64,000 bases of DNA, taken from the IMG/VR virus record IMGVR_UViG_3300009506_000019, positions 32,001 to 96,000 of that record; one strand, written 5' to 3'. This document shows, piece by piece, positions 2,002-61,782 of this stretch (the first letter of the stretch is position 1; each line of letters begins with the position of its first letter). The stretch comes from a virus. A program made the position numbers and the translations under genes. The notes below the pieces were generated by a model. The model did no database searches. It saw only the letters and a program-made list of their open reading frames with translations, and was not told where the DNA came from.

Positions 2002-2150
2002 GGGTCTTTGCTCCCCTCACCATCAAACTTCGTCTTGAAGCTCTTGACCCAATGCCTCTCTATCGGATGAAGGGGATCCTTCTCCTCCTGATTCTTCGGT
2101 TCCGTTTGCTCTATCTTCTCCAGGATCTTGCGCTGGCTGGGGGTCAACAT
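1917..2150 (-). CDS. Hypothetical protein
   Basis: 77 aa ORF overlapping the trigger factor 3' end. Confidence 0.5.
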   Translation of the reverse strand: MLTPSQRKILEKIEQTEPKNQEEKDPLHPIERHWVKSFKTKFDGEGSKDPCEMSLRILAETYQKATDPNWKPSWLVM

Positions 2151-9040: not shown

Positions 9041-9354
9041 TTAATTACTTGTTCTGGCATATAGATATATACTGCAGCCTCCTCCTCACAGCACTCACAT
9101 CGATAACCGCACCGATAAATAGCGCCACGAATCAATGGTGTTTTCTTTCGATTGGTTTTGTTCACAATGGACTTGTGAATGGTAATGCACTTTTTCGGCA
9201 AATCCTTCAGCTCACTGAAGAACTTGATTGGTCTCCCCTCAAAACCAATATGTACAGACATCAACGGCTGATGTTTGAATCTTGGTAAAAACAAATCCAA
9301 CCTGGAGTTGTCTTTGTCAATGTTCGTACGTTTGGTTCTGGCTTCTACAATCAT
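9037..9354 (-). CDS. Hypothetical protein
   Basis: 105 aa, ATGA overlaps at both ends, CGYRCECC. Confidence 0.55.
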   Translation of the reverse strand: MIVEARTKRTNIDKDNSRLDLFLPRFKHQPLMSVHIGFEGRPIKFFSELKDLPKKCITIHKSIVNKTNRKKTPLIRGAIYRCGYRCECCEEEAAVYIYMPEQVIK

Positions 9355-10013
9355 ACTTCCACCTCGTAATGTTCAAATACAGGTGGTGTTGGAGGCTCTT
9401 GCCCCTTGCTCTTACGATATGCTGAAAAATCGAGGAACTGTTCCTCCACCCACTGTCTTTGTGATTGGATGAACTTCTGCAGCGTCTTGGGGAAAGTAGT
9501 ACGTGTAGCTGCCATTTTAAGCAACACATTACCACATGCCGTAGAATCGTTCATGGCACGGTGTGCACCAACCAACGGAATGCCGTACTTGTCTGCGGCG
9601 TCTGTCAGTCGCTTTCCCTTGTTGTATTTGTGCCACTTTTTGAAAAGAATCATAGGGTCTGCCATGGGTTTCAATGGAAATTCCATGCCCACGCGCTTGA
9701 ATTCTTCTTTCAACACACCACGATCGTAATCGTAGTTATAGGCGCAATGAATGTCATAAATGTTCAACGTATTCCATACCCACCATGCAATCTCAGCAAA
9801 CGTCGGTGAGTCTTCAACATCGACGTCTGTAATTTTGTGTACAGCTGATGCACCTGGGTCGATAGGAACAAGCGGTCTGACAAACGTGCCCCATTCCTGT
9901 ATTGGCTTCGCATTTTTGAATAAACTGAAGCCAATCTCAACCACATGATCACCAAGAATGGCGGTCTCGGTATCGAATACTAGCACGCTGCCTTTTAGGA
10001 AATCAGGAATCAT
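9351..10013 (-). CDS. dnaQ: DEDDh 3'-5' exonuclease (Pol III epsilon-like)
   Basis: ExoI FDTET, ExoII AYNYDYD, ExoIII AHRAMND. Confidence 0.92.
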   Translation of the reverse strand: MIPDFLKGSVLVFDTETAILGDHVVEIGFSLFKNAKPIQEWGTFVRPLVPIDPGASAVHKITDVDVEDSPTFAEIAWWVWNTLNIYDIHCAYNYDYDRGVLKEEFKRVGMEFPLKPMADPMILFKKWHKYNKGKRLTDAADKYGIPLVGAHRAMNDSTACGNVLLKMAATRTTFPKTLQKFIQSQRQWVEEQFLDFSAYRKSKGQEPPTPPVFEHYEVEV

Positions 10014-17889: not shown

Positions 17890-18345
17890 TTACTCATCTG
17901 TCGAGCCAAATCCGCTTGTCCCGCGCACTGTGTTGGGAAGATTCCCCACCACCTCAATAGGTGGAACAACACGCGAATGAATGACCAACTGTGCTAGTCG
18001 GTCTCCATTGTGAATCGGATGTGGTTCGAGAGTCGGATTCCAGATGAAAATTGACAGCTCACCTGTATATCCTTCATCTATCGTGCCACCCATGACAAAC
18101 AACTTACGCTTGGCAAAGGTGCTGGATCGCGGCCTGATGTCGCCCCAATAGCCTTCTGGCAACTTGATGTAGACACCAGTACGAATATTGACCATTTTCT
18201 GTGGATTGACAACGAAAGTACCACCATCATTCTCAACCCATGTTTTCAAATCATATCCAACATCACCGGGCTTGGCTGGGCCTGATATTGGGTCTTCATT
18301 TGGGCATTCTGGGTGCACACGCACCATTAGCTTAATATCAGGCAC
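17890..18345 (-). CDS. dut: Trimeric dUTPase
   Basis: VGYDL, RPRSS, GTIDEGYTGE, RLAQL, RGTSGFGST. Confidence 0.95.
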   Translation of the reverse strand: MPDIKLMVRVHPECPNEDPISGPAKPGDVGYDLKTWVENDGGTFVVNPQKMVNIRTGVYIKLPEGYWGDIRPRSSTFAKRKLFVMGGTIDEGYTGELSIFIWNPTLEPHPIHNGDRLAQLVIHSRVVPPIEVVGNLPNTVRGTSGFGSTDE

Positions 18346-18853
18346 GAGCAGCTCCTAACAATCCTTGAGATTCTTGAGCTTTGGTAAGTTCCTTCTTCAG
18401 AACTTCCAACTCACTAGCTTGACAGCGCATCTTAGCACGTTGTTCTTCAATCTCATGTGCTGCCTTCATGAGCTTCCCATAAAGCTCGTTCACATCCTTG
18501 ACAAAGATAGCCTGTCTGCCGATATATTGCATGTAGACAGACTCAGCCATGTCCGTGATGATGATCATGGGCTTGTGGTTACGTACCTGATAGAACTCAA
18601 TTGGTGTACCAACTGAAGTTTGTCCCTTCTTCAGCGACCCAACCAAGATATCAGACCGTTCCAATGCCACCATGTTGATGTCGTGAATGTACGCTGCGAT
18701 GTCAGCGTCCACATTGCGAAACTTGAATGGAGCACATGGATCAAAGAATGCCAACTCTTTGTTGACATCACATAGAGCAAGTAGCTCTTCCTTCCAAGAT
18801 GCACCCTTGTCCTTTTCATAATCGATAGGACCGGCCATGTAACAAATGATCAT
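18338..18853 (-). CDS. Nucleoside 2-deoxyribosyltransferase / dNMP N-glycosidase (NDT-RCL family)
   Basis: YMAGPI, FFDP, ALERSDILV, SVGTPIE, KPMIII. Confidence 0.82.
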   Translation of the reverse strand: MIICYMAGPIDYEKDKGASWKEELLALCDVNKELAFFDPCAPFKFRNVDADIAAYIHDINMVALERSDILVGSLKKGQTSVGTPIEFYQVRNHKPMIIITDMAESVYMQYIGRQAIFVKDVNELYGKLMKAAHEIEEQRAKMRCQASELEVLKKELTKAQESQGLLGAARA

Positions 18854-19419
18854 TTTCTCAATCCCACTATTTTGGCCAGTGAAGCAGCAGCTTGCACCAG
18901 GTCTGAATTAATGACCGTATAATACGGTATGTTGTATTGGAATATCACCTTCTCCATCTGATCGATCATCTTGTCCTGTTTCTCGATCTTCAGCGACAAT
19001 TTGTCTAGTTCATCTTGGTCATCGCGCATTCGATGCTCTGCACGCAGACGTAGATGTTCCCCGATTACCTTAATGAAACAACCGTCGTCTTCGGTACCAG
19101 CCAACTGGTTGTCCAACATCCATTTGACTTGGCCGTCAAAACGAGGACAGCTATCAAGAAAGATTAACTCTGACCCTTGCCCGCGCCTCTTATTGATCAT
19201 CTTGAGTATCTCTTCTCTCATCCGATCTTCGAATGGAAAGAGATTACCCTGAGCCATATGCTCCAACTCCACCTCTGTAGATAGACGCCTTGCAATGTCA
19301 CCGGTCTTGACATGTGCAATGATTTCCTTGCTGGATTGCACCAATGTCTCTATGAGAGTGCTCTTACCAGAACATGGAACACCAAAGACACCAATGATTC
19401 TTCCAGATCGTCGCTTCAT
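18850..19419 (-). CDS. Adenylate-kinase-like NMP kinase
   Basis: P-loop GVPCSGKST, HVKTGDIAR, LDSCPR...Q, RDD. Confidence 0.8.
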   Translation of the reverse strand: MKRRSGRIIGVFGVPCSGKSTLIETLVQSSKEIIAHVKTGDIARRLSTEVELEHMAQGNLFPFEDRMREEILKMINKRRGQGSELIFLDSCPRFDGQVKWMLDNQLAGTEDDGCFIKVIGEHLRLRAEHRMRDDQDELDKLSLKIEKQDKMIDQMEKVIFQYNIPYYTVINSDLVQAAASLAKIVGLRK

Positions 19420-22049
19420 GCTGCAAGCCTCTTGTGTAACGAACCTAAATCAGAGAAGGTAGAACAATCAGTAATGCGGAGATGAGAGCTGCCTGGATCG
19501 ATATGAAGCTTGGCATTCACCTGAAAATCTGATACACCACCACGCCTCTTACCTATGATGACCTTCCGATTCCCTTTGGCTTCGCCATCTTCCGCAATCT
19601 TCTTTTTGCTCTTTACTTCAATATAAACAAAGTTGTCACAATCCTGAATAATCTGATACGAGCCAGCGATTTTATGCTGACCCTGTGCCATCTTATCACG
19701 ATTGAGCTGTGCAATGATAATGGCTGGCAGGCCCATGTCACCGACCACCCGATTAATGATCATCTTCGATGCGTGACCAATAACCTGTTCTCTACTCCAT
19801 CTTTCCTGACCAGGTGCCGTGGTAATGAGCTGGATGTAATCCCAAATTACCGCCTGAATACCATACTTCCACCGATACTCATCAATGATGGCGATAATTT
19901 CATCAATGTGGCCATATGCTGGTTTTGCACAATAGTATCCGGATTTTGCTATCTTCTCACGTGCTTTCCGGATCTCCTCTGCTTCTTTTTGGCTCAAAAG
20001 GCCAGACTGCATTCTACTGTTGTCGATACCAGTCATGATCGATGCAAGACGCATCGTATTATCACGACTGTACATCTCTTGGCCAATCCACAGTGTCTTT
20101 ACTTCAGCATCTACAGCCAGACACTTGAGAATGTTCATGCCAAGCAATGATTTTCCAGATCCAGAATCACCACCTATGACAGTGTAGTGCCGCTGGATTC
20201 CTCCAAGCACCAAATCAACAGACGGCATGTGGTGAAAGCTGTGTCCAATGATTAAGTTACCACCTGACTTGCTGCGTTCTTTGACCTCGTTGTAAAACTC
20301 GTCTGCCAACTCTTGTGGTGTGCGAGCCTGGGGACGAGCAGACGATGACGTAGAAATGAGCTGGCTACGGTGTGTCTCTACTATCTCCACAAAATCCTGT
20401 GATAGATCACGCGATGCTGTAATGAGACCACTAGCCTGCTCGGAAGCAGAACGCCTACGCCACATGTCCAATACTATCTCTGACGCAGCAATCTCGGTGT
20501 ACTTCAAAGAAAGGTCAAACATCTGCGCCACAACAGTAGGCAGCTCTGGATTTGGATGTTGAGCCATGGCCTCATCCAACACTGCCTGTGGCGTATAATT
20601 ATCACCGTACTTGTCTGCGGCATCGATGCAGGCATTGTATAATCGTCTATAATGCGAAATGGTAAATGCTCTCTCTATAATACCAGCAGCTCTTGCAGCA
20701 GCTAAAGCAGATGGATTCTCCATACACATGACCACGAGCGCTCTCTCAGCTTCAGTATTGAATAATTCACTGAATTGCGCTTTAATCTCAGCCACATAAT
20801 CAATCACAGCTTCTTTGGTGCTGTTGATCAACTTGGCCAAGTAATCTGCAGCCATGTCCAACTGAATTCCTGATGCCTTGGTCAGGAAATCACGAAGGTC
20901 TGTGAACAGAGTCTCTTTTTCTGTGTATGATAGGGTTCCGTCTGCTGAACCAGTAAATTTCGTGCGGATGTAATGTTCGACCGGAAGCTCTGTCTTACTG
21001 AGCATGGCATATACTGCTTCATCGCCACCCTCTTTCCACACATCGTGTGGGTCCATATCTACTTCTGGTCGCGCTACCAGTATCAGAGCCTCACCAATAC
21101 GACGTGGCTTACTGACCAATTCGAGTGATTTCAACCACCCAGATTGATCACCATCATAACAAGCTATGATCTTTTTCAGCTTGAATTCAGAAAGAAACTC
21201 TATCTGCTTATCTGTAATAGCTGCGGTCATACAGCCAGCAGCCTTCAATGCAATGGAATCTCGAAATCCCTCCACCACTACCAGCGTGCCATCGTTTGTG
21301 CGGATATTCTTACGAGCAACATGCATTCCATACATAACAGTTGGGTCATGTAATGGGTGCGTAGATTTGTTGCCCATATATGGAGCTTTGTCCCCACCAA
21401 GCTGCTTGGTGTAAAATCCAATGACCTCTGACTTGTGGTTGTGAATCGGATAGATTATGGCGTTGTTGAACAAATCTTTACGATAGAACTCGAGCTTCTC
21501 AATATCTTCTTGTGAGAGCGCTATTTGCTTCGATAAATGAGCAACCAGCACATCTTTGTCTGGACAGTAGCCGACCTGGTATGGAGCAATTTGATCAAGA
21601 GTGAATCCAGACCGAGACATGTAATCGTCACGAATCTGAATGTTCTCTCTCAGCAGTTGATGCATATATTCTGCTGCAAGATTGTTGATTTGTACGTACC
21701 GAGATCTTGCTATTTCTTCTGGTGAGGGGTCTTTGTAGAATGGTGTGAGGTCGAGCTTGAATCTATCTGCGACGTGTTGGACGGACTCAATGAAAGAGAG
21801 ATTGTGCCAGAGCTGCGCCCAGGCAAATATGTCTCCGCTATGTTGCTCCCCTCCCCAATCCTTGAATCGATTTCCACTAACTTTGAAGGAGGGATTGTCT
21901 TCGTCGCGGAACGGAGACGTACAGACGTAAGTATTATTTGATTCTTCTTTCCATTCGACATCGCCCACATCCTCATCGATTACCTGCATTAGGTCAGAGT
22001 TTTCTCTGACGTATTCCTTAGCTCCCTGTAGGTTGCTGAATTTTCTCAT
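19416..22049 (-). CDS. Fused DnaG-type primase and DnaB-type helicase
   Basis: IIYPI, TOPRIM VVEGFRD and YDGDQSG; helicase GGDSGSGKS, IWDYIQL, IAQLNR, IIQDCD, KRR. Confidence 0.92.
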   Translation of the reverse strand: MRKFSNLQGAKEYVRENSDLMQVIDEDVGDVEWKEESNNTYVCTSPFRDEDNPSFKVSGNRFKDWGGEQHSGDIFAWAQLWHNLSFIESVQHVADRFKLDLTPFYKDPSPEEIARSRYVQINNLAAEYMHQLLRENIQIRDDYMSRSGFTLDQIAPYQVGYCPDKDVLVAHLSKQIALSQEDIEKLEFYRKDLFNNAIIYPIHNHKSEVIGFYTKQLGGDKAPYMGNKSTHPLHDPTVMYGMHVARKNIRTNDGTLVVVEGFRDSIALKAAGCMTAAITDKQIEFLSEFKLKKIIACYDGDQSGWLKSLELVSKPRRIGEALILVARPEVDMDPHDVWKEGGDEAVYAMLSKTELPVEHYIRTKFTGSADGTLSYTEKETLFTDLRDFLTKASGIQLDMAADYLAKLINSTKEAVIDYVAEIKAQFSELFNTEAERALVVMCMENPSALAAARAAGIIERAFTISHYRRLYNACIDAADKYGDNYTPQAVLDEAMAQHPNPELPTVVAQMFDLSLKYTEIAASEIVLDMWRRRSASEQASGLITASRDLSQDFVEIVETHRSQLISTSSSARPQARTPQELADEFYNEVKERSKSGGNLIIGHSFHHMPSVDLVLGGIQRHYTVIGGDSGSGKSLLGMNILKCLAVDAEVKTLWIGQEMYSRDNTMRLASIMTGIDNSRMQSGLLSQKEAEEIRKAREKIAKSGYYCAKPAYGHIDEIIAIIDEYRWKYGIQAVIWDYIQLITTAPGQERWSREQVIGHASKMIINRVVGDMGLPAIIIAQLNRDKMAQGQHKIAGSYQIIQDCDNFVYIEVKSKKKIAEDGEAKGNRKVIIGKRRGGVSDFQVNAKLHIDPGSSHLRITDCSTFSDLGSLHKRLAA

Positions 22050-23130: not shown

Positions 23131-23520
23131 CTATAGTTCCACCATCCAACGAGGGTTGAATGGAATGTCGGTCATTTGAATTTCTTGAGTTCTATGAACG
23201 TAATAAGATCTGGTGCCGTTTCTTGCTAAATCATGCGCAAAAAACAACAAACCAAATCTACCTTGACGAAACGAATAGGGCTCAGCCAACCGCCAGACAT
23301 TGGAATACAAAATTTTGACCAAAACTCTTTTTCTTGCTGCCCTACGAATAAGAGTGACAATCTCGGCCTCTTGAAGATAGGTAGCTCGCTCTACTGGCTT
23401 TTTCAGCTCTTCTACTTCAGTGGTTTCTTCCTCTGGTAGCGGCTCTTTTTGAAAGAATGGTAGCTTGGGAAGCTTCAGCTTCCGCACAACCGACTTGATT
23501 CGTTCAAATAGGCCAGCCAT
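23131..23520 (-). CDS. Stand-alone WYL-domain protein
   Basis: VKILYS...RLAEPYSF...FFAHDLARNGTRSYYVHR. Confidence 0.75.
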   Translation of the reverse strand: MAGLFERIKSVVRKLKLPKLPFFQKEPLPEEETTEVEELKKPVERATYLQEAEIVTLIRRAARKRVLVKILYSNVWRLAEPYSFRQGRFGLLFFAHDLARNGTRSYYVHRTQEIQMTDIPFNPRWMVEL

Positions 23521-24137
23521 TATGCCGCCTCTCTTCTTCCATCTGCATAGATATAATGCGTAATTTGTTTTTCCTTGGATTTGACGTTTCGCACTGGAAG
23601 CTGACCAAACCTATGGATATAGTCTTCCTTCCAGTTCCAAATCGACTGGTACGTTCTACCAAGATAATATGGCCTATACACAATGAGCGAATGTGGTAAA
23701 TCTGAAGTTGTGCCGTAGTTGCCTTTTTTATCGGGGTGTGGCAACCAGAATTTGAGCCTACCGCTAACATGACGAACCTCAGCCGCCTTGTCCCAGACCC
23801 AATCGCTCCAATATTTTACATCCGTGCATGTGTGCACTAAAGCAGTAACCGTGATGCCTTTTTGACTCTCGAGCCAACACTTCTCCAAAAACAATGGTAC
23901 CATACCACGACTATATGGTGGATTCAACCATACACTAATACCCATCTTGTGCCAAATCTGCGCAAGAGAGTTCTGTTCTTTAGTTATGTAGGTGTCACAC
24001 TTCGTATTGAACGCAGCAGCTGCCGCGTCAAAAGCGTAGCGAAACTCGTAATCGCAAATCTGAAAGAAGTCTGGACAGGTCTCGTAATATTCCTTGCCCC
24101 CGCCAGGCGTTCTATCTTTCCCCTTCTGGTGTCCCAT
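23520..24137 (-). CDS. dam: Phage DNA N6-adenine methyltransferase (Dam family)
   Basis: ETCP, FDAAA..FNTKC, NSL...W, VWLNPPYS, GRLKF. Confidence 0.88.
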   Translation of the reverse strand: MGHQKGKDRTPGGGKEYYETCPDFFQICDYEFRYAFDAAAAAFNTKCDTYITKEQNSLAQIWHKMGISVWLNPPYSRGMVPLFLEKCWLESQKGITVTALVHTCTDVKYWSDWVWDKAAEVRHVSGRLKFWLPHPDKKGNYGTTSDLPHSLIVYRPYYLGRTYQSIWNWKEDYIHRFGQLPVRNVKSKEKQITHYIYADGRREAA

Positions 24138-31214: not shown

Positions 31215-31379
31215 TCAATCATCATCCCAGCATCTACACGGCAAAATACTGTCACCGTGGAACCTGCCACAATGAATACAATACTTCTCACGTATTGCAT
31301 TCAAGAACTTGAGCCGCTCCTCTTCACTCATCTCCTCAAATTCAGGGAGAACAATGCTGAGAAGCTGCTCAATGGTCAT
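31215..31379 (-). CDS. Small zinc-binding protein
   Basis: ATG coupled to upstream stop; CIHCG...CRC. Confidence 0.6.
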   Translation of the reverse strand: MTIEQLLSIVLPEFEEMSEEERLKFLNAIREKYCIHCGRFHGDSILPCRCWDDD

Positions 31380-32755
31380 CACACTTCGTCCGGACCGCCT
31401 GATTGTACTACGGCTGCCATCTCCCCAGAGGATCGACGGACAATCGTGTGCTCCACATCCGGACCAGTTGACAAGTAATTGAAAAACACTCCGAGCTTGG
31501 ATTCCAGAGTCGTGATCCAATCTCTGGTTTTCTGTGTCAGTGAGTCCCATGATGACTTGTGCCGATCTTGATAGTTCAGGTAGTCAACAAACGACAACAT
31601 GAGCTTCGTTGGTCGATTGATATCCAACGCCTTCTTGAGATCGGTAGGCTTCCCATCGGGCCTATCAAGCGTAAATACCCGACGCTTGCGCTTCGTTGCA
31701 GTGGTGATTTCTACGATGGGCTCTGGAGACTCGGCGTGCTCTGTGATTTCTTCCCATGTAATTTCTTCGCCCGACATAGGACCAGAATCTCCAGCAACAC
31801 GAATAGGAAAAGTACGGGTGACACCATAGACATCCCTGACGGCAAATGGGGAAATGCCCGCGTCAGCACACCAATTAGAAGCATTGGTGTCACGAGAAGT
31901 AGTTTTGCCACGGTATCCATGGTGAAGAGAAAGGACGGAGCCCTGAGTTCCTTCAAGTAGGATCGGCTCATTCCTGTCAATAAGCCGATTGAGAAACTCA
32001 ACAGTACCCCCAACAAATTGTTTGAGGAAATCGTCATCTCCAGAGTACCTCACTTTTTCTGGTTCGATGAATTCACCCCAATCGGTGACCACACCATCGT
32101 TTTCCAGAACTACCATCATGCCTTCGACGAAACGATCATAGTTGACATCCTGTCCCGTCTTCTTGCGGAAGTAGTCAGTGAGATTCAACTTCTGACCGGG
32201 AAGTACCACCATCTTCGTGCCACGTGCTGCCTTCCTGCAGGCATTTGCGCCAACACCATGAGTGGTAGAGCCAAGAGCTTTCCATGCACTGTCCGGTGGA
32301 AGCTTGTCGCATCCAGCACAAGTGCCACCAAGCTTGGCATGTTCGCTGCAGTCGATTGGGTGTGTCCACAGATCACCACAATCCGGCATACGACCACCAT
32401 TTTCTGCGATTTTGTCGATTGGGTCGATGATAACAGCATTTGGATCGATCATGAGACGATCATCGCTCCAAACACCAGCTTCTTTCAGAACTTCGATTTC
32501 GTGCTTGAGATGTTCGATGTCGATTTGAGCATTGGCACCAAGAACCACTTTTGCATTGGGGAAGTGGAAAGCGCCACAAGGAATGGTGTGGAAAGCAAAG
32601 TGCTTTCCTTTGTACTCGACAGTATGCGCTGCGTTTGGACCACCTGTACGAACCAGAGCAGCGTAGGGAACATCTTGCAGGATGGACATGAATTTGCCCT
32701 TGCCCTCGCTGCCAGCATTCAATCCCACCAAAATATCAACGCAACGATTCGTCAT
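31379..32755 (-). CDS. purZ: Adenylosuccinate synthetase homolog of PurZ/PurZ0 type (putative 2-amino-2'-deoxyadenylosuccinate synthase)
   Basis: GSEGKGK (Ser at the PurA Asp13 position), GGPNAAHT, LGST, EGTQG, TTSRD, RTFPIRVAGDSGP, TTATKRKRRV, SFVDY, STGP. Confidence 0.8.
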   Translation of the reverse strand: MTNRCVDILVGLNAGSEGKGKFMSILQDVPYAALVRTGGPNAAHTVEYKGKHFAFHTIPCGAFHFPNAKVVLGANAQIDIEHLKHEIEVLKEAGVWSDDRLMIDPNAVIIDPIDKIAENGGRMPDCGDLWTHPIDCSEHAKLGGTCAGCDKLPPDSAWKALGSTTHGVGANACRKAARGTKMVVLPGQKLNLTDYFRKKTGQDVNYDRFVEGMMVVLENDGVVTDWGEFIEPEKVRYSGDDDFLKQFVGGTVEFLNRLIDRNEPILLEGTQGSVLSLHHGYRGKTTSRDTNASNWCADAGISPFAVRDVYGVTRTFPIRVAGDSGPMSGEEITWEEITEHAESPEPIVEITTATKRKRRVFTLDRPDGKPTDLKKALDINRPTKLMLSFVDYLNYQDRHKSSWDSLTQKTRDWITTLESKLGVFFNYLSTGPDVEHTIVRRSSGEMAAVVQSGGPDEV

Positions 32756-33000
32756 TATGCTTTCTCCTGTACAATGTTGTCGATATAACTCGACGGTATG
32801 GAGCCTTTTACTTTCAAAAGGACGTTTCCCTTGTCGTCCACTATAATACTGGTGGGGTAGCTGATTATTCGGTACCGTGCTATCGTCAGCAGGTCTTCCA
32901 AATCAGTGGAGTCGAATCGTATATGCTTGAAGTCCAAACCATCACGTTGTGGAAGGGTTGGTAACTTCTCACCATTCTTTGTGAATACGTAGATAATCAT
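32755..33000 (-). CDS. Thioredoxin/glutaredoxin-fold protein lacking CxxC
   Basis: IYVFTK...ARYRIISYPTSIIVDDKG; directly downstream of RNR. Confidence 0.6.
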   Translation of the reverse strand: MIIYVFTKNGEKLPTLPQRDGLDFKHIRFDSTDLEDLLTIARYRIISYPTSIIVDDKGNVLLKVKGSIPSSYIDNIVQEKA

Positions 33001-33014
33001 ACATATTTTATACC

Positions 33015-35306
33015 TTAACAGCGGCTGTAGCCGCAATTATAGCATTTGGAGCAGCCTTCTTCGAATGCCATGGCTGCACCGCAAGACGGACACGCACCAA
33101 CATGCCCATTTGTGGCCTTATGCTCAGCTGTTTGCCCCTGCATCTCAGCAAGATGTTCCTCAAGAGCAACAGAGATAGCATCTCCACACGATGTGATAAT
33201 TCGTGGTCGATTTCCTGTATGCTTTGACTTGTGCATTGCTGTGACGTGACAACGAATGCCACCAAGTTGTTTTGCAATTTTCTCTGGTGGAGCGCCGTGT
33301 TGCATGGCAATGCTGGCCATTCTGGCGATAGCTTCTGTTTGTGCAGCAGCACAGCCACCACCTTTGCCCAGACGAGCCGTAATCTCGTGCGTACCATCCT
33401 CATTTCCACCAATGTATACCATTAGACTACCGCAACCGTTCACTACTTTGCGGTTGCTGCCATGCGTAACCGGTGCACGCTTGCCAATCTGGATGAGCCC
33501 ATTCGGCTCTACCTTCTTGGTGCTGAGAGGCTGATATTTACGGCTTCCATCGCGGTATACCGTAATTCCTTTGCATCCACCTTCAAAAGCCATCTTGTAG
33601 GCTTTGTCCACATCAGCAGCAGAGGCATCGTGACTCATATTGATGGTTTTTGATACCGCCGACGTAATGTATCTCTGCCAGATAGTTTGATGATGGATAT
33701 GCCACTCATAATCAATATCATGAGCGGTGGGGAAAGCTGCCCGAATGTCTGCTGGTAGAAAATCCGCTTTCTTGAGAGAACCACCCACATTGGCCAACTT
33801 CTGTCTAACCTCTGGGGTGTCCAACCCACGTCGCTCGAGCATGCTGAACAAAGCAGGATGATAATCCACCTGCACCATACCAGCCTGATCACGAACAGTC
33901 ACAGGAGCGAACAATGGTTCAATCCCACTTGAACACATGGCATAGAGCGATGTGGTGCCAGTCGGAGCGATGGTCGTTCTATCACTATTGCGCATATGCT
34001 TTTCTTTGCCATCATACGCACTCCCCTCAAAGAAGGGAAAATTCCCACGATCTTGACCAAGCCTACGACTCTCATCCAACGAAATCTTGTCGAAAAACTC
34101 ACCGATTTCATCGGCCTTGGACAAAGCCGCATCTGAATCGTATGGAATATTCATGGTAGCAAGCATGTCTGCCCACCCCATGATGCCAAGACCAATCCTA
34201 CGAGTACCACGGTTCATTTCAGCCAGCTCTTGGATTGGAAAGCAATTTACTTCCACAATGTCATCCAAGAATTGAACACCAAAACGAACGGCATCTTCCA
34301 GCGCTTCCCAATCTACTTGGGATGTACCATTGATTCCGGCCACGAACTTGCTGAGGTTTATATGTCCGAGATTGCAGGACTCATAGGGGAGGAGCGGCTG
34401 CTCACCACAAGGATTAGTAGTACGAATCCTACCAATGTGGGGAATAGCATGCTTCCTATTAGCAGTGTCTTCGAAAAAGATGCCAGGCTCGCCATTTTCG
34501 TGTGCATTGTGAACAATCAAGTCCCACAGCTCTTGAGCTGGCATTGACCCACGTTTTTCGCCTGTGTGAGGATCTTTGAAATACCAATCATCACCAGCAA
34601 CTAGAGCTTCCATAAATCTGTCTGGAATTGAAACCGAGATGTTGAACTTCTCGATTCCAATGACAGATTTGAGTCTTTTGGCCTCTTCCGGGCCAACATC
34701 AAACTTCTTGGCCAATTCATCAATTTCTATCTCAATGCCTGCTTTTTTGCAGGTGATGAAATCAACAATGTCCGGATGCCCAACATCCAGCATTGCCATA
34801 TTTGCTCCCTCACGCATTCCCTGTGCTACATGGGTCGCATTCTCGTTCAGCATCCGCAGCCAATTGACCGGACCTCTGGTTGTGAATCGATCTGCGGCTT
34901 TTGTGCCTGCGGAACGTATTCCACCCAGGAAGAATCCCGTGCCTCCACCGGAGGCTTGGATCATCCCTTGATTGTAGTGCGATTTGTATATAGATGGAAG
35001 GTTGTCTTCTACCGGTAGTACGAAACATGCTGAACACTGTGCGTTGGGAAATCCTGCATTGACAAGCGTAGGAGTGTTTGGCATAAACTTATGCTCAAAC
35101 ATCATCTCAGTTGCTTTTTCGATAAAACGAGCAGTAGCCTTGCCATCCTCATACACAGAATGGCCTTTTGCTACGTGATTGGCTACGCGACGAAATGCAT
35201 CAAGCGGCGTTTCTTGTTTGCCATTGTCTTTTGTGAATAAAATTCTCTCCCGCATGATGTTGTAAACAACATCGGAGACATTAATGCCTTCAGCCGCAGC
35301 CTGCAT
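33015..35306 (-). CDS. nrdJ: Class II (B12-dependent) ribonucleotide reductase with TSCPD domain and zinc ribbon
   Basis: PNTPTLVNAG, SACFV, GGGTG, TNPCGEQPL...CNLG, TIAPTGT, VSKTIN, CKGITVYRDG, EEGCSKCYNCGYSRC. Confidence 0.95.
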   Translation of the reverse strand: MQAAAEGINVSDVVYNIMRERILFTKDNGKQETPLDAFRRVANHVAKGHSVYEDGKATARFIEKATEMMFEHKFMPNTPTLVNAGFPNAQCSACFVLPVEDNLPSIYKSHYNQGMIQASGGGTGFFLGGIRSAGTKAADRFTTRGPVNWLRMLNENATHVAQGMREGANMAMLDVGHPDIVDFITCKKAGIEIEIDELAKKFDVGPEEAKRLKSVIGIEKFNISVSIPDRFMEALVAGDDWYFKDPHTGEKRGSMPAQELWDLIVHNAHENGEPGIFFEDTANRKHAIPHIGRIRTTNPCGEQPLLPYESCNLGHINLSKFVAGINGTSQVDWEALEDAVRFGVQFLDDIVEVNCFPIQELAEMNRGTRRIGLGIMGWADMLATMNIPYDSDAALSKADEIGEFFDKISLDESRRLGQDRGNFPFFEGSAYDGKEKHMRNSDRTTIAPTGTTSLYAMCSSGIEPLFAPVTVRDQAGMVQVDYHPALFSMLERRGLDTPEVRQKLANVGGSLKKADFLPADIRAAFPTAHDIDYEWHIHHQTIWQRYITSAVSKTINMSHDASAADVDKAYKMAFEGGCKGITVYRDGSRKYQPLSTKKVEPNGLIQIGKRAPVTHGSNRKVVNGCGSLMVYIGGNEDGTHEITARLGKGGGCAAAQTEAIARMASIAMQHGAPPEKIAKQLGGIRCHVTAMHKSKHTGNRPRIITSCGDAISVALEEHLAEMQGQTAEHKATNGHVGACPSCGAAMAFEEGCSKCYNCGYSRC

Positions 35307-58394: not shown

Positions 58395-58470
58395 TGGCGG
58401 GAGAGGAGGGACTCGAACCCTCATCAAACAGGTTAACGGCCTGTTGCTCAGCCAATTGAGCTACACTCCC
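58395..58470 (-). tRNA. tRNA-Asn(GTT)
   Basis: Cloverleaf, loop CCGTTAA, GTTCGA, CCA. Confidence 0.9.
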
Positions 58471-58474
58471 GCAT

Positions 58475-58549
58475 TGGTGGGGCGGAGTGGAATCGAACCA
58501 CTGCTCTCGGATTTTCAGTCCAAAGCTCTACCAACTGAGCTACCACCCC
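58475..58549 (-). tRNA. tRNA-Phe(GAA)
   Basis: Loop CTGAAAA, CCA. Confidence 0.92.
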
Positions 58550-58553
58550 ATGT

Positions 58554-58624
58554 GCAGAGCTGGTCAGCCACGCGCTACCCATCCCAGATTGTGCTGGGCC
58601 AAAGCCTTGTCCGCTGCGCTCTGC
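58554..58624 (-). ncRNA. tRNA-sized degenerate cloverleaf element
   Basis: 7-bp GCAGAGC/GCTCTGC, CCCAG/CTGGG arm with 6-nt loop, no TTC T-loop or CCA. Confidence 0.5.
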
Positions 58625-58638
58625 AACTCTTACTTGTT

Positions 58639-58715
58639 TGGTGGACCGGACGGGACTCGAACCCGTGACCTCCTGGGTGCAAACCAAGCGCTCTCCCAAC
58701 TGAGCTACGCGGCCC
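58639..58715 (-). tRNA. tRNA-Ala(TGC)
   Basis: Loop TTTGCAC, G3:U70, CCA. Confidence 0.92.
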
Positions 58716-58716
58716 A

Positions 58717-58792
58717 TGGAGCTGGTGAGAGGAATTGAACCTCCAACATCCGGTTTACAAGACCGGGGCTCTGCCAATTGAGCTACACCAGC
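58717..58792 (-). tRNA. tRNA-Thr(TGT)
   Basis: Loop CTTGTAA, CCA. Confidence 0.92.
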
Positions 58793-58810
58793 TCTTTGCC
58801 AGCGTTCAAT

Positions 58811-58885
58811 TGGCGGGCCTACTCCGACTCGAACGGAGATCTCCGGTTTTGGAGACCGGCATCCTACCAATTGAACGATAGACCC
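58811..58885 (-). tRNA. tRNA-Trp(CCA)
   Basis: Loop CTCCAAA, CCA. Confidence 0.92.
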
Positions 58886-58905
58886 TTGTTTCTTCACCAC
58901 CCGGC

Positions 58906-58980
58906 TGGTGGGCCGGGAGGGAATCGAACCCTCAACAAACGGGTTAAAAGCCCGCTGCGCTACCGTTGCGCCACCGGCCC
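58906..58980 (-). tRNA. tRNA-Lys(TTT)
   Basis: Loop CTTTTAA, CCA. Confidence 0.92.
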
Positions 58981-59014
58981 ACACCGCCGATGGTCTTCTC
59001 CTCAGCGAACCGGA

Positions 59015-59091
59015 TGGTCCGCCAGGGAGGACTCGAACCCCCGACACGCGGGGTAGAAACCCGCTGCTCTGTCCAACTGAGCTACTGACGG
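59015..59091 (-). tRNA. tRNA-Arg(TCT)
   Basis: Loop TTTCTAC, CCA. Confidence 0.92.
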
Positions 59092-59111
59092 ACAGATCCG
59101 ATATTCGCGAC

Positions 59112-59187
59112 TGGTAGGCGAGGGGAGAATCGAACTCACCAACCTGTCGCTTATAAGGCGACGGCTCTACCATTGAGCTACTCGCCA
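59112..59187 (-). tRNA. tRNA-Ile(TAT)
   Basis: GTCGC-CTTATAA-GCGAC, discriminator A, CCA. Confidence 0.88.
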
Positions 59188-59199
59188 TTTCTCTCGAGT

Positions 59200-59274
59200 T
59201 GGACCGCCAGGTCGGAATCGAACCGACGTGCGCCTGCTTGGAAGGCAGGGGACCAGCCACTAGCCCACTGGCGG
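59200..59274 (-). tRNA. tRNA-Gly(TCC)
   Basis: Loop CTTCCAA, U73, CCA. Confidence 0.88.
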
Positions 59275-59277
59275 TTT

Positions 59278-59353
59278 TGGTGCGCAGAGCAGGGCTCGAA
59301 CCTGCGACCCTCTGCTTGTAAGGCAGACGCTCTCCCAACTGAGCTACCCGCGC
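59278..59353 (-). tRNA. tRNA-Val(TAC)
   Basis: Loop CTTACAA, CCA. Confidence 0.92.
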
Positions 59354-59355
59354 AC

Positions 59356-59431
59356 TGGTCCAGGTGAGTGGAATTGAACCACTGACATCACGATTATCGG
59401 TCGTGTGCTCTCCCATCTGAGCTACACCTGG
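59356..59431 (-). tRNA. tRNA-Ile(GAT)
   Basis: Loop CCGATAA, CCA. Confidence 0.9.
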
Positions 59432-59443
59432 ACAATGAAAGGC

Positions 59444-59567
59444 GGGGCTGGGGCGTCGCGCTCTTTCCATGCATCGACCATTCGCACCCTCTGGCTTAGC
59501 GAGCCAGCGCACAGTTTCTGGGGTGTCAGCCCCATGGTCTACCCCACGCTCTGACAAGCGTTGCCCC
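59444..59567 (-). ncRNA. Multi-branched structured RNA between tRNAs
   Basis: Nested stems GGGGC/GCCCC, TGGGGT/GCCCCA, GACCAT/ATGGTC, GGGG/CCCC, TGGCT/AGCCA, CGCT/AGCG. Confidence 0.6.
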
Positions 59568-59574
59568 ATAATTT

Positions 59575-59649
59575 TGGTAGCGGGAGCGAGAATCGAACTC
59601 GCGACGGTCTGGTTATGAGCCAGATGTTCTACCACTGAACTATCCCGCA
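59575..59649 (-). tRNA. tRNA-Met(CAT), possibly initiator-like
   Basis: Loop CTCATAA, U1:U72 mismatch, CCA. Confidence 0.88.
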
Positions 59650-59660
59650 ACAAATGCAAG

Positions 59661-59736
59661 TGGAGGGCCAGGCAGGAGTCGAACCCGCGACACCTTGGTC
59701 CGTAGCCAAGTGCTCTGTCCACTGAGCTACTGGCCC
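59661..59736 (-). tRNA. tRNA-Arg(ACG)
   Basis: Loop CTACGGA, CCA. Confidence 0.92.
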
Positions 59737-59738
59737 TT

Positions 59739-59814
59739 TGGCGGTGCGTACGGGAATCGAACCCGTCGTTTCCTGAGTGACAGTCAGGCCGGTTCACCAG
59801 CTCCGTCACGCACC
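59739..59814 (-). tRNA. tRNA-Asp(GTC)
   Basis: Loop CTGTCAC, G73, CCA. Confidence 0.9.
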
Positions 59815-59980
59815 GAGACGTGACCCAACTGTCCTTCAGTAGGTTCTGACCGTTTTGTCGATACCACCGAAGGAGGTCAGTTAGGCCACGGTGGTATCTC
59901 GAAAATTCGCTTTAATACCGGCCCACATTGTCGTCGTTATGACGACTCTTCCGGTCCTTGCGACCGAATGTGTGCCGAGG
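59815..59980 (-). ncRNA. Structured leader RNA: three-way junction plus nested pseudoknot
   Basis: Stem 59919-59929/59967-59977 with two hairpins; 13-bp stem 59819-59831/59878-59890 crossed by GATACC/GGTATC. Confidence 0.6.
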
Positions 59981-59995
59981 GGTAACATCACGATC

Positions 59996-60004
59996 ATTAT
60001 AACA
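59996..60004 (-). promoter_or_regulatory. Extended -10 promoter for main tRNA array
   Basis: TGTTATAAT. Confidence 0.6.
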
Positions 60005-60028
60005 CAGCATGCTGTGCGTGTGAATTAT

Positions 60029-60115
60029 TAGTGCTGAGGGCGGGACTCGAACCCGCACGAGCAATTGCCCAGGAGATTTTAAGTCTCCAGTGTCTACCAA
60101 TTCCACCACCCCAGC
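60029..60115 (-). tRNA. tRNA-Leu(TAA)
   Basis: Loop CTTAAAA, long variable arm, ends CTA not CCA. Confidence 0.9.
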
Positions 60116-60116
60116 T

Positions 60117-60202
60117 TGGTGGGCAAGGAGGGAATCGAACCCTCAATCCCGAAGGCACTGGTATTTGAAGCCAGCGTGTATACCAAGTTCCACCACTTGC
60201 CC
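60117..60202 (-). tRNA. tRNA-Leu(CAA)
   Basis: Loop TTCAAAT, C31:A39 mismatch, long variable arm, CCA. Confidence 0.85.
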
Positions 60203-60280
60203 ATGAGCTACGCGCCCTGGAACCCTGTCGTAGCTCGATGACGCCCTCCTACGTGCTTGACGCCACACCACTTTCTCGAT

Positions 60281-60366
60281 TGGTGGGTGCGGAGGGAGTC
60301 GAACCCTCAATCCCGAAGGCACCAGATCCTAAATCTGGCGTGTATCCCAAGTTCCACCACGCACCC
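60281..60366 (-). tRNA. tRNA-Leu(TAG)
   Basis: Loop TTTAGGA, near-duplicate body of Leu(CAA), CCA. Confidence 0.9.
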
Positions 60367-60367
60367 T

Positions 60368-60453
60368 TGGTACGGGAGGCGGGACTCGAACCCGCACGGA
60401 CAAGCCACATGCTCCTCGGGCATGCGCGTCTACCATGATTCCGCCACTCCCGT
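60368..60453 (-). tRNA. tRNA-Leu(GAG)
   Basis: Loop CCGAGGA, long variable arm, CCA. Confidence 0.88.
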
Positions 60454-60538
60454 AGCTTACTTTTTACAAGGATAAGAGTCGCAGGAGGAAACCTGCGACA
60501 GCGATCGAGTTGTGCGTTTTATTCGCCATCTCACTCCA

Positions 60539-60567
60539 AGTATAACATACTGGTGACCGCACATCAA
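60539..60567 (-). promoter_or_regulatory. Sigma70-type promoter for Leu tRNA block
   Basis: TTGATG-17-TATACT with TG extension. Confidence 0.55.
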
Positions 60568-60586
60568 TCATTACCTATATCCGGAC

Positions 60587-60760
60587 ATGGACGAACAGCA
60601 ACAAAAAGATGCATTAGAGTTGTTGAAGGAAGCCACGGCAGCTCACCCAGACATTGTTTATGGAAGACCCAACACAGTAATTTCTCACACAGACATGGTG
60701 AATTGGTTGTATCAGTGGATTCCTCGAGTTCAAGGCTTCCTTGATGAAGTTGATGGATAA
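60587..60760 (+). CDS. 57-aa hypothetical protein (below ORF-track cutoff)
   Basis: MDEQQQKDALELLKEATAAHPDIVYGRPNTVISHTDMVNWLYQWIPRVQGFLDEVDG*. Confidence 0.55.
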   Translation: MDEQQQKDALELLKEATAAHPDIVYGRPNTVISHTDMVNWLYQWIPRVQGFLDEVDG

Positions 60761-60797
60761 ATTGACAACCACCACGTGATTATGATCTAATTGGAAG

Positions 60798-60895
60798 TGA
60801 TAGGAGAACGTCATGGATACCGTGATGAAAAACACAGGCTTCGCTGTTCTTGCCAACGCCCTTGTTGGTCAGTCGCAGCCGTGTTACTCCTATCA
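60798..60895 (+). ncRNA. Structured leader RNA / SD-sequestered 36-aa micro-ORF (60813..60923)
   Basis: TGATAGGAG/CTCCTATCA, TCATGG/CCGTGA, GCCAAC/GTTGGT stems; TTGACA at 60762. Confidence 0.45.
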
Positions 60896-60939
60896 TCATT
60901 ATTCACAACCACACAGTAGTTAAGGCACGCTCACATAGA

Positions 60940-61029
60940 GGAGCGGTAGCCTAGCCTGGTAAGGCGGCGGGTTGCTAACCCGTTGGTGTGCTTGCACACT
61001 CGAGGGTTCGAATCCCTCCCGCTCCGCCA
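60940..61029 (+). tRNA. tRNA-Ser(GCT)
   Basis: Loop TTGCTAA, long variable arm, G73, CCA. Confidence 0.92.
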
Positions 61030-61047
61030 TTTTCTTGTGAGGTTGTG

Positions 61048-61230
61048 ATGAAGGATGAATTCAAGAAAGCAGTAATCATGACAGGTGACGTACCGCACTG
61101 TTCGTGTCGGTATTGCAAAAACCTGAATCGCACCAGAATCGACAGGAAAAAGCAAAGAAAACAAAAGAGAAAAAGGAGGGCAAGACAGATTTTGAAGAAA
61201 TATTTACGTACGGGAGTAGCGCAGTGGTAG
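61048..61230 (+). CDS. Small very basic protein with CxCxxC
   Basis: GAGG SD; HCSCRYC; RKKQRKQKRKRRAR; stop lies inside tRNA-Pro. Confidence 0.5.
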   Translation: MKDEFKKAVIMTGDVPHCSCRYCKNLNRTRIDRKKQRKQKRKRRARQILKKYLRTGVAQW

Positions 61231-61284
61231 CGCACCGGTTTTGGGAGCCGGGGGTCGTGAGTTCAACCCTCACCTCCCGTACCA
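61210..61284 (+). tRNA. tRNA-Pro(TGG)
   Basis: Loop TTTGGGA, CCA. Confidence 0.9.
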
Positions 61285-61287
61285 AAC

Positions 61288-61375
61288 GGATGGGTAGCCT
61301 AATTGGTAAGGCACCAGTCTTGAAAACTGGCGATGCATTCGTGCACTGCGGGTTCGAGTCCTGCCCCATCCGCCA
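61288..61375 (+). tRNA. tRNA-Ser(TGA)
   Basis: Loop CTTGAAA, long variable arm, CCA. Confidence 0.92.
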
Positions 61376-61384
61376 GCTTAAATT

Positions 61385-61455
61385 GCACCCGGCCGCAGGC
61401 GAAAGCCGAATTGGACCGAGCGAAAGCCGAAAGTCCGAGGATGACGGCCGGGTGC
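61385..61455 (+). ncRNA. GAAA-tetraloop structured RNA between tRNAs
   Basis: Perfect 11-bp GCACCCGGCCG/CGGCCGGGTGC enclosing GGC-GAAA-GCC and GGAC..GC-GAAA-GC..GTCC. Confidence 0.65.
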
Positions 61456-61460
61456 TTTAT

Positions 61461-61536
61461 GGCGGTTGTAGCTCAATGGAAGAGCATCCGGTTGTGGCCC
61501 GGAAGACGAGGAGTTCAATTCTCCCCAATCGCCCCA
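61461..61536 (+). tRNA. tRNA-His(GTG)
   Basis: G-1:C73, loop TTGTGGC, CCA. Confidence 0.92.
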
Positions 61537-61539
61537 AAA

Positions 61540-61614
61540 GGCCAGATAGCCAAGTGGCAAGGCATGGAGCTGCAACCTCCATCATCGTCGGTTCGATTCC
61601 GACTCTGGCCTCCA
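61540..61614 (+). tRNA. tRNA-Cys(GCA)
   Basis: Loop CTGCAAC, U73, CCA. Confidence 0.92.
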
Positions 61615-61615
61615 C

Positions 61616-61689
61616 AGAGGAGTCGCTCAATGGCAGGGCAACGGGTTTTGGCCCCGTTTATCTGGGTTCGATTCCCAGCTCCTCTTCCA
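61616..61689 (+). tRNA. tRNA-Gln(TTG)
   Basis: Loop TTTTGGC, CCA. Confidence 0.9.
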
Positions 61690-61694
61690 TCCAT

Positions 61695-61782
61695 GGGTGT
61701 GTAGACCGCTATGGACACGGGCTTGGCTGTAGACCAAGCGTGCTTTGGCACCGTGAAGGTTCGATTCCTTCCACACCCACCA
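61695..61782 (+). tRNA. tRNA-Tyr(GTA)
   Basis: Loop CTGTAGA, long variable arm, CCA. Confidence 0.88.

Follow-up and report, generated by a model that had tools for sequence, protein, structure and literature searches.

A PurZ-like enzyme and a DmtZ-like partner in a large phage with a DnaE replisome: a candidate lineage of 2-aminoadenine genomes

The locus described here raises the question whether a large phage that replicates with a family-C DNA polymerase may build its genome with 2-aminoadenine (Z) in place of adenine. Every Z-genome phage characterised so far is a sipho- or podovirus of 30-85 kb which uses a family-A DpoZ or, in the case of S-2L, a PrimPol (PMC8342488; PMC12884076); a first-pass annotation of the locus had correctly named these polymerases. 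The window, i.e. the whole stretch of 64,000 nucleotides that was analysed, comprises bases 32001-96000 of the 166,061-bp IMG/VR record IMGVR_UViG_3300009506_000019, which is 100% complete according to CheckV (phage G000 in the following). Its open reading frame (ORF) at 31379-32755 on the minus strand had been annotated as a PurZ0-type enzyme in a possible Z-DNA system with a different replisome. This ORF proved to be real, with an ATG start, a length of 458 aa and all four motifs that had been quoted for it (GSEGKGK, FPIRVAGDSGP, TTATKRKRRV and SFVDY). Judged by its sequence, it codes for a functional PurA-family enzyme of the Ser-type (PurZ-like) branch, which most likely condenses dGMP and aspartate with GTP or ATP, and we lean, with moderate confidence, towards a role of the enzyme in Z-DNA synthesis in this phage.

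Structure-aware alignment to E. coli PurA placed the motifs where the annotation had put them, with GSEGKGK as the P-loop and Ser at the position of Asp13, TTATKRKR at 298-305 and SFVDY at 330-334, the TKLDV guanine-recognition site. The Ser is not a chance substitution, because it is found in 236 of the 241 homologs with a readable P-loop (three have Gly and two Asp) that came from an index of 5.8 billion proteins and from an exhaustive search of 1.8 billion representatives. N38, H41, R143, Q224, T239, R303 and R305 are retained and the other catalytic residues are all intact. S13, T298 and K302 are common to the window enzyme, PurZ and PurZ0, whereas PurA has D, G and G at these positions, and together with W252 these shared derived states locate the enzyme on the PurZ/PurZ0 side of the family, as had been proposed. 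At six of the positions reported to separate experimentally dZ-enriched PurZ from PurA (bioRxiv 10.1101/2025.10.22.683976), namely S14, P233, the top-ranked W252, T262, F295 and Y298, the PurZ state is present; the PurZ-only insertion is missing, as it is from PurZ0. The retained Asp at the nucleotide-specificity site had been taken to indicate a GTP-using PurZ0. Glu14 and Asp333 are indeed as in PurZ0, with Thr14 and Asn/Gln333 in PurZ, but the NTP site is a hybrid: Asp333 and Ser414 are those of GTP-using PurA and PurZ0, while F331 and Y334 are those of the ATP-using phiVC8 PurZ, where both stack on adenine. GTP as the possible phosphate donor is therefore only a guess. An alignment of 28 members of the clade revealed 73 invariant columns, every catalytic residue among them, and an insert with invariant C126, C136, H139, C146 and C149, which is present in none of PurA, PurZ and PurZ0 and probably forms a zinc-binding module. 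The protein matched Pfam PF00709 (E=1.6e-46), and its best PHROG was 1211, the PurZ family (E=1.3e-58). The AF2 model of the enzyme was confident (pLDDT 87.6), and the closest solved structures, both by sequence and by fold, were in this order P. horikoshii PurA, PurZ0 (7VF6) and phiVC8 PurZ, with a Foldseek TM of 0.9 to 2D7U, normalised on the target.

For the phylogeny, a maximum-likelihood tree of 100 sequences was calculated with IQ-TREE (LG+C20 PMSF), with E. coli PurA and a PurA of Asp type from a 735 kb megaphage as the root. All Ser-type enzymes formed one clade (SH-aLRT 99) that excluded Asp-type PurA of both the long and the short form. The short Elusimicrobia PurAs of Asp type were united in a clade of their own (100% support); the window enzyme grouped with the Ser-type clade and not with ordinary Asp-type PurA. 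Four separate groups were recovered among the Ser-type enzymes: kinase-fused bacterial enzymes (95%), PurZ0 (99%), PurZ (99%) and the group of the window enzyme, called the query clade hereafter (95%; 15 rows, with a core of eight at 99%). The query clade (95%) falls outside the PurZ0 clade formed by Ghobes, Wayne and Hiyaa (99%), the window enzyme falls outside the PurZ clade (99%) as well, and PurZ0, PurZ and the query clade branch from the backbone without resolution, in the manner of a radiation. The enzyme is thus not a PurZ0 by descent, and what is left of this assignment are PurZ0-like character states; from the tree, the query clade is to be regarded as a third PurZ-type lineage, separate from PurZ and PurZ0. 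Its members are purely metagenomic. A tblastn search with the protein against 50,697 phage records gave no match above 37% identity, full-length matches being at about 28-30%, and so no isolate phage with a member of the query clade was found; megablast against the same records with 24 kb of window sequence gave no match either. As scans of IMG/VR with single proteins returned one distant locus each, relatives were collected with alignment-based scans. The lineage with DnaE and without PolA comprises the window phage G000, G001 (178 kb), G003 (113 kb) and G004 (178 kb).

The strongest support for a Z-DNA system comes from a gene beside Dut that is DmtZ-like and had gone unnoticed in the first-pass annotation. 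The partners known from PurZ phages, DatZ (PF12917, PF01966), MazZ/DUF550 (PF04447) and DUF5664, were not found in six frames of the whole genome with models that detect the phiVC8, S-2L, Wayne and Bm1 proteins. In the window the order of this part is primase-helicase, P-loop kinase, NDT-like gene, Dut and ThyX. The NDT-like protein scored 26.8 bits against PF05014, under the cut-off of 28.8, and shares only 21-26% identity with the DmtZ proteins of Ghobes, Wayne and Hiyaa; its profile was matched to DmtZ by hhalign with 98.1% probability (E=1e-13). Six catalytic or substrate-contact residues of DmtZ have been defined (NAR 2026; PMC12884076). When the three DmtZ proteins were aligned with the four proteins of the DnaE phages, Pro57, Gly99, Asp12, which reads adenine, and the triad of Tyr6, Asn77 and Glu103, in which the Asn is unusual, were all found to be invariant in the window protein and its G001, G003 and G004 orthologs. 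The site-closing Trp124 of DmtZ is replaced by Val or Leu in the DnaE-phage proteins, and Ser123 is retained. An IMG/VR scan for this NDT-like subfamily, seeded only from the four DnaE-phage proteins, led to 19 further records, 13 of which, including both complete genomes of the set, also carry a PurA-family gene. This gene was Ser-type in all 12 that were checked and fell into the PurZ0 clade in 11 of these, with 51-53% identity to Hiyaa PurZ0, and it usually adjoins the NDT-like gene; the six records without a PurA-family gene are fragments (5-61% complete). From the active-site residues, the hhalign match and the co-occurrence with PurZ0, the NDT-like ORF is assigned to the DmtZ family. To our knowledge, the sole role of DmtZ is adenine exclusion in PurZ0 phages. 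All 98 PurZ0 genomes encode DutZ and 85 of them DmtZ. The order of NDT-like gene and Dut is kept in all four DnaE phages and agrees with the arrangement of the domains in DmtZ-DutZ, a fusion protein of PurZ0 phages (PMC12884076). Complete DnaE phages without a PurA-family gene (G033, G037 and G041) also have no NDT-like gene, which is weak evidence given that they are distant kin. Dut itself cannot be counted as independent evidence, because ThyX adjoins it, a true dCTP deaminase is encoded 7 kb upstream, and its NCBIfam equivalog scores resemble those of characterised DutZ controls (identity to Ghobes DutZ is 34%).

The replisome was as annotated. DnaE was confirmed as the only recognisable polymerase, since a search of all six frames of the whole 166,061-bp record detected no family-A (PF00476) or family-B polymerase and no PrimPol, and a DnaG-type primase fused to a DnaB-like helicase is present, as are the class II ribonucleotide reductase (RNR) and the 25 tRNAs. 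The DnaE-only replisome recurs in the related large phages G001, G003 and G004. E. coli polymerases have been reported to insert Z upon expression of a Z-cluster, and most polymerases do not discriminate between Z and A (PMC8342488), which makes a DnaE replicase for Z mechanistically plausible.

The best explanation for these data, and one that we regard as fairly probable from the sequences, would be a Ser-type synthase that makes the dZ precursor, combined with DmtZ-like adenine exclusion and replication by DnaE and DnaQ. Dut or another diphosphatase would supply dGMP and dAMP from the triphosphates, and the PurZ-like enzyme would convert dGMP and aspartate, with GTP or ATP, to N6-succino-2-amino-2'-deoxyadenylate, from which host PurB would form dZMP. 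The phage P-loop kinase and/or host kinases could then raise dZMP to dZTP. Adenine would be kept out as in PurZ0 phages, without DatZ, by cleavage of dAMP to adenine and deoxyribose-5-phosphate through the DmtZ-like enzyme, and the DnaE/DnaQ replisome would insert dZTP opposite T. We infer substrate choice, NTP donor, the specificity of Dut and the presence of Z in virion DNA, be it full or partial; the Z base is reported as A in sequence reads. That the phages represent a new Z-genome lineage with a family-C replisome is probable on this basis. The most far-reaching version, phages of about 110-180 kb with fully Z-substituted genomes which are copied by DnaE and DnaQ and rely on a PurZ-type synthase with zinc module and a DmtZ/Dut route, is put forward as a tentative proposal that may well turn out to be wrong.

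Several observations weigh against a Z genome. The PurZ-like enzyme lies outside the PurZ and PurZ0 clades, the sole biochemically characterised members of the Ser-type clade (PMC12884076). It stays under every curated NCBIfam equivalog cut-off, among them that for PurZ (NF038379, 157 versus 300 bits), and archaeal PurA provides the best match both among the equivalog-type models and in the PDB (PRK04293, 199 versus 368 bits; the other PurA model, TIGR00184, gave 174 versus 396). Where PurZ has the aromatic F12, a contact of the 2-amino group, it has Ala. No PurB was found in the genome; many Z phages depend on the host PurB. Next to ThyX and dCTP deaminase, a canonical function is obvious for Dut, and Dut and DutZ are not told apart by sequence. 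The Dam-type N6-adenine methyltransferase that the phage encodes is a weak counter-argument, because Z can be methylated in vitro (PMC8342488) and Ghobes has a methyltransferase too, although the latter is without Pfam match and does not allow a like-for-like comparison with a phage Dam. Furthermore, the complete genome G002 (183,765 bp, L021) encodes a 55%-identical enzyme, but no Dut, DmtZ or DatZ, and uses a UDG-fused PolA (family A) instead of DnaE. There the gene is located between sbcD-like and sbcC-like genes, near an RNR and beside a LAGLIDADG endonuclease (L021, L138). The G002 contig has also been binned into a GenBank 'Candidatus Paceibacterota' MAG, which is either a mis-binning or a hint to the host.

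How little Ser13 is restricted to Z phages became evident from cellular genomes. In a scan of 185,579 species genomes 79 loci were found in cellular assemblies, of which 72 were Ser-type, many of them in a nuclease-kinase / PurA-like / DCD-like cassette, and none Asp-type. Ahead of the Ser-type gene, isolates of Bradyrhizobium, Thalassolituus, Mariprofundus, Microbacterium and Methylobacterium encode a protein of about 670-756 aa with RNase_H_2-type nuclease and P-loop kinase domains, and in some cases DUF429; Nitrosomonas has a 698-aa ORF in that position. A dCTP-deaminase-like gene is located downstream in all three isolates scanned there (Thalassolituus, Mariprofundus and Nitrosomonas). PADLOC, which has no model for the cassette, gave weak partial matches only, and what these genes look like is an uncatalogued nucleotide-targeting, possibly defence, system. 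P0115, P0119 and about 20 further representatives of 500-560 aa (Ignavibacteriae, Flavihumibacter) carry the Ser-type enzyme fused to an N-terminal AAA_18 kinase and form a well-supported clade; this kinase domain resembles the kinase part of the PADLOC defensive dCTP deaminase, and the fusions are probably a fused form of the bacterial cassette. No PADLOC match was obtained for the phage proteins. The claim that Ser13 is the hallmark of PurZ and PurZ0 holds in so far as the window enzyme shares it with both, but the Ser type is also frequent on bacterial chromosomes, as part of a non-phage cassette. Ser13 thus marks a chemistry and not a Z-genome phage, and less weight falls on it and more on the DmtZ-like partner.

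The bacterial cassettes, which cannot be building a Z genome, also lend substance to the strongest of the other explanations: the enzyme could perform PurZ-type or related chemistry on guanine nucleotides for a purpose other than a Z genome, such as manipulation of the pools (draining dGMP/dGTP or countering a host system), partial or transient Z, or another purine derivative. The distinct query clade with its unique Cys4/His insert, the G002 enzyme without known dATP-clearing partner and the Dam-type methyltransferase would fit such a role. The DmtZ-like partner in all four DnaE phages, however, has kept the adenine-reading Asp12 and fits removal of dAMP best, and its subfamily travels with PurZ0 outside these phages, so that we consider this explanation unlikely, if still to be taken seriously.

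We give a distinctly smaller chance to an ordinary adenylosuccinate synthetase acting as auxiliary metabolic gene, which would convert IMP to adenylosuccinate and provide more A nucleotides for a large genome. Apart from the archaeal-type best matches in NCBIfam and PDB, E14, R303, D333 and S414 are PurA-like and the gene is adjacent to the RNR. Many phages carry an Asp-type PurA, and the uncultured megaphage LR756501 (L017, 735 kb), with an ordinary long-form enzyme of Asp type (GDEGKG), demonstrates that large phages can also hold a canonical adenylosuccinate synthetase. Phage G005 (L056:9989-13577) has a Ser-type relative that is more remote; the genes after it encode, in this order, a dUTPase extended by 110 aa at its N terminus, a product without family match and a 350-aa member of the IMPDH/GMP-reductase family. 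A GMP-reductase-type enzyme two genes away would suit G-to-A interconversion, and this setting represents a different purine-interconversion context. Yet Asp13 is conserved in 99% of true PurA (PMC12884076) while Ser is found across the whole query clade, the PurA equivalog scores of the window enzyme reach about half of the cut-offs, and the tree splits Ser-type from both Asp-type groups with 99% support. In addition, an ordinary PurA leaves the DmtZ-like partner without a place. Finally, a decaying or non-functional remnant, for which no support was found, is effectively refuted by the intact frame with Shine-Dalgarno sequence and translational coupling, the conservation of all catalytic residues within the invariant columns and the confident AF2 model.

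The PurZ-like gene is the last of an operon within the replication and nucleotide-metabolism module (Table 1). An AGGAGA Shine-Dalgarno sequence precedes its ATG, which overlaps the stop codon of a 93-aa ORF (TAATG); this ORF and the end of the RNR gene overlap likewise, and from these successive overlaps of stops and starts NrdJ, the 93-aa ORF and the PurZ-like gene form one translationally coupled operon. Both ThyX and the dCTP deaminase have extensions of at least 100 aa beyond their catalytic domains. A MazG-like ORF was considered as part of the Z system and rejected: its similarity to S-2L MazZ is marginal, it has none to the Bm1 protein, and no match with E<=0.01 was obtained in G001-G005, the one other match being in G028. 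Between the UvsX-like recombinase and the PurZ-like operon, at 29112-30767 on the minus strand and at the GC peak of the window, a 551-aa protein is encoded which has a very long low-complexity centre rich in Pro, Gln and Ala and a short ExoX-like C-terminal motif. A 448-aa ORF at 2023-3369 (minus strand) contains, unusually for a phage, the N-terminal domain of a bacterial trigger factor (PF05697, 48.8 bits).

Table 1. Positions of the features discussed, in window coordinates (last row: loci in bacterial isolates).
Feature	Position	Strand	Evidence or predicted role
DnaQ-like (epsilon) 3'-5' exonuclease	9351..10013	-	
DnaE (Pol III alpha), sole recognisable DNA polymerase of genome	10531..14238	-	TIGR00594 673 bits vs cut-off 434
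ThyX thymidylate synthase with extension, 471 aa	16331..17746	-	
Trimeric dUTPase (Dut)	17890..18345	-	directly downstream of DmtZ-like gene; canonical role feeding ThyX; DutZ-like dATP/dGTP diphosphatase role possible
DmtZ-like NDT-superfamily protein, 171 aa	18338..18853	-	predicted dAMP N-glycosidase / deoxyribose-5-phosphate transferase
P-loop nucleotide kinase, weakly adenylate/thymidylate-kinase-like	18850..19419	-	directly upstream of DmtZ-like gene; candidate dNMP (dZMP?) kinase
DnaG-type primase fused to DnaB-like helicase	19416..22049	-	
Phage Dam-type N6-adenine methyltransferase	23520..24137	-	
dCTP deaminase, 285 aa	24112..24969	-	TIGR02274 113.7 bits vs cut-off 92.8
Small MazG/PRA-PH-superfamily NTP pyrophosphohydrolase, 88 aa	25111..25377	-	marginal similarity to S-2L MazZ
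Ser-type PurA-family enzyme (PurZ-like), 458 aa	31379..32755	-	predicted N6-succino-2-amino-2'-deoxyadenylate synthase
Second, variable insert of PurZ-like enzyme, residues ~178-240, mostly helical	32036..32224	-	in only part of clade
Clade-specific insert of PurZ-like enzyme, residues ~117-160, Cys4/His	32276..32407	-	alignment of 28 clade members; AF2 pLDDT 72-75
93-aa ORF, no family match	32755..33036	-	translationally coupled, between RNR gene and PurZ-like gene
Class II (B12-dependent) ribonucleotide reductase NrdJ, first gene of operon	33015..35306	-	TIGR02504 575 bits vs cut-off 400
tRNA array, 25 genes	58395..61782		tRNA gene count
Bacterial-isolate cassette loci	L206:2016-5161, L204:1956-5855, L150:1958-6110, L189:384-4503, L209:1874-5017, L184:1746-5023		Ser-type PurA-like gene in cassette

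If the Z reading is true, Z-DNA would for the first time be found in nature together with a polymerase of the Pol III type, and no larger Z genomes would be known; a Z pathway in phages of 110-180 kb with their own DnaE/DnaQ, 25 tRNAs and RNR would widen the range of Z-DNA biology, and synthetic biology would gain a natural enzyme of Pol III type for copying long Z-DNA, useful for ZTGC organisms. Nothing relevant was found in the literature linking PurZ to DnaE or polymerase III, or aminoadenine to jumbo or large phages. For enzyme evolution, a third lineage would become available for tracing the path from PurA to PurZ. The bacterial cassettes point to an unexplored cellular use of Ser-type chemistry and call for caution in annotation, as a GSEGKG protein is not automatically a marker of a Z genome.

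Among the known systems, the GTP-using PurZ0 of the Gordonia phages Archimedes and Ghobes and of the Arthrobacter phage Wayne (PDB 7VF6) shares with the window enzyme the Ser at Asp13, Glu14, Asp333, T298, P233, W252 and T262, and the genome analysed here has a DmtZ-type NDT gene followed by Dut, as in the fused DmtZ-DutZ protein, with neither DatZ nor DUF550. The two differ in clade (about 28-29% identity), in the P-loop (GSEAKG in PurZ0, GSEGKG here), in F331 and Y334, which are as in PurZ, and in about 100 extra residues of the window enzyme, including the Cys4/His insert. PurZ0 phages use the PolA DpoZ-1, whereas DnaE/DnaQ is found here in a genome four times larger, and PurZ0 stands next to Dut/DmtZ, whereas the PurZ-like gene is about 13 kb away from this pair. 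With the ATP/dATP-using PurZ of phiVC8, S-2L and SH-Ab 15497 (PDB 6FM1, 7ODX) the enzyme has Ser13, T298, K302, W252, F295 and Y298 (phiVC8 numbering), the fold and presumably the reaction in common, but not Thr14 (GSTGKG), Asn/Gln at 333 or the 'YPD' insertion; PurZ phages carry DatZ and MazZ, which are both missing here. Archaeal or short-type PurA (P. horikoshii PH0438, PDB 2D7U and 5K7X; Elusimicrobia) was the best match (E=1.4e-32, TM 0.9 normalised on the target) and has the short-form architecture in common with the window enzyme, as well as Asp333, Ser414 and Ala at 12, but it keeps Asp13 and Gly298/Gly302, forms its own clade (100%) and is without the Cys-rich insert. Compared with DmtZ, the dAMP hydrolase / deoxyribose-5-phosphate transferase of PurZ0 phages (PMC12884076), the partner protein shares the six residues and the place directly upstream of Dut and differs at Trp124 and in overall sequence (21-26% identity). 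While the enzyme family and DmtZ were already known, what is new here is the occurrence of a third PurZ-type lineage, a PurZ0-style gene for adenine exclusion and a family-C replisome together.

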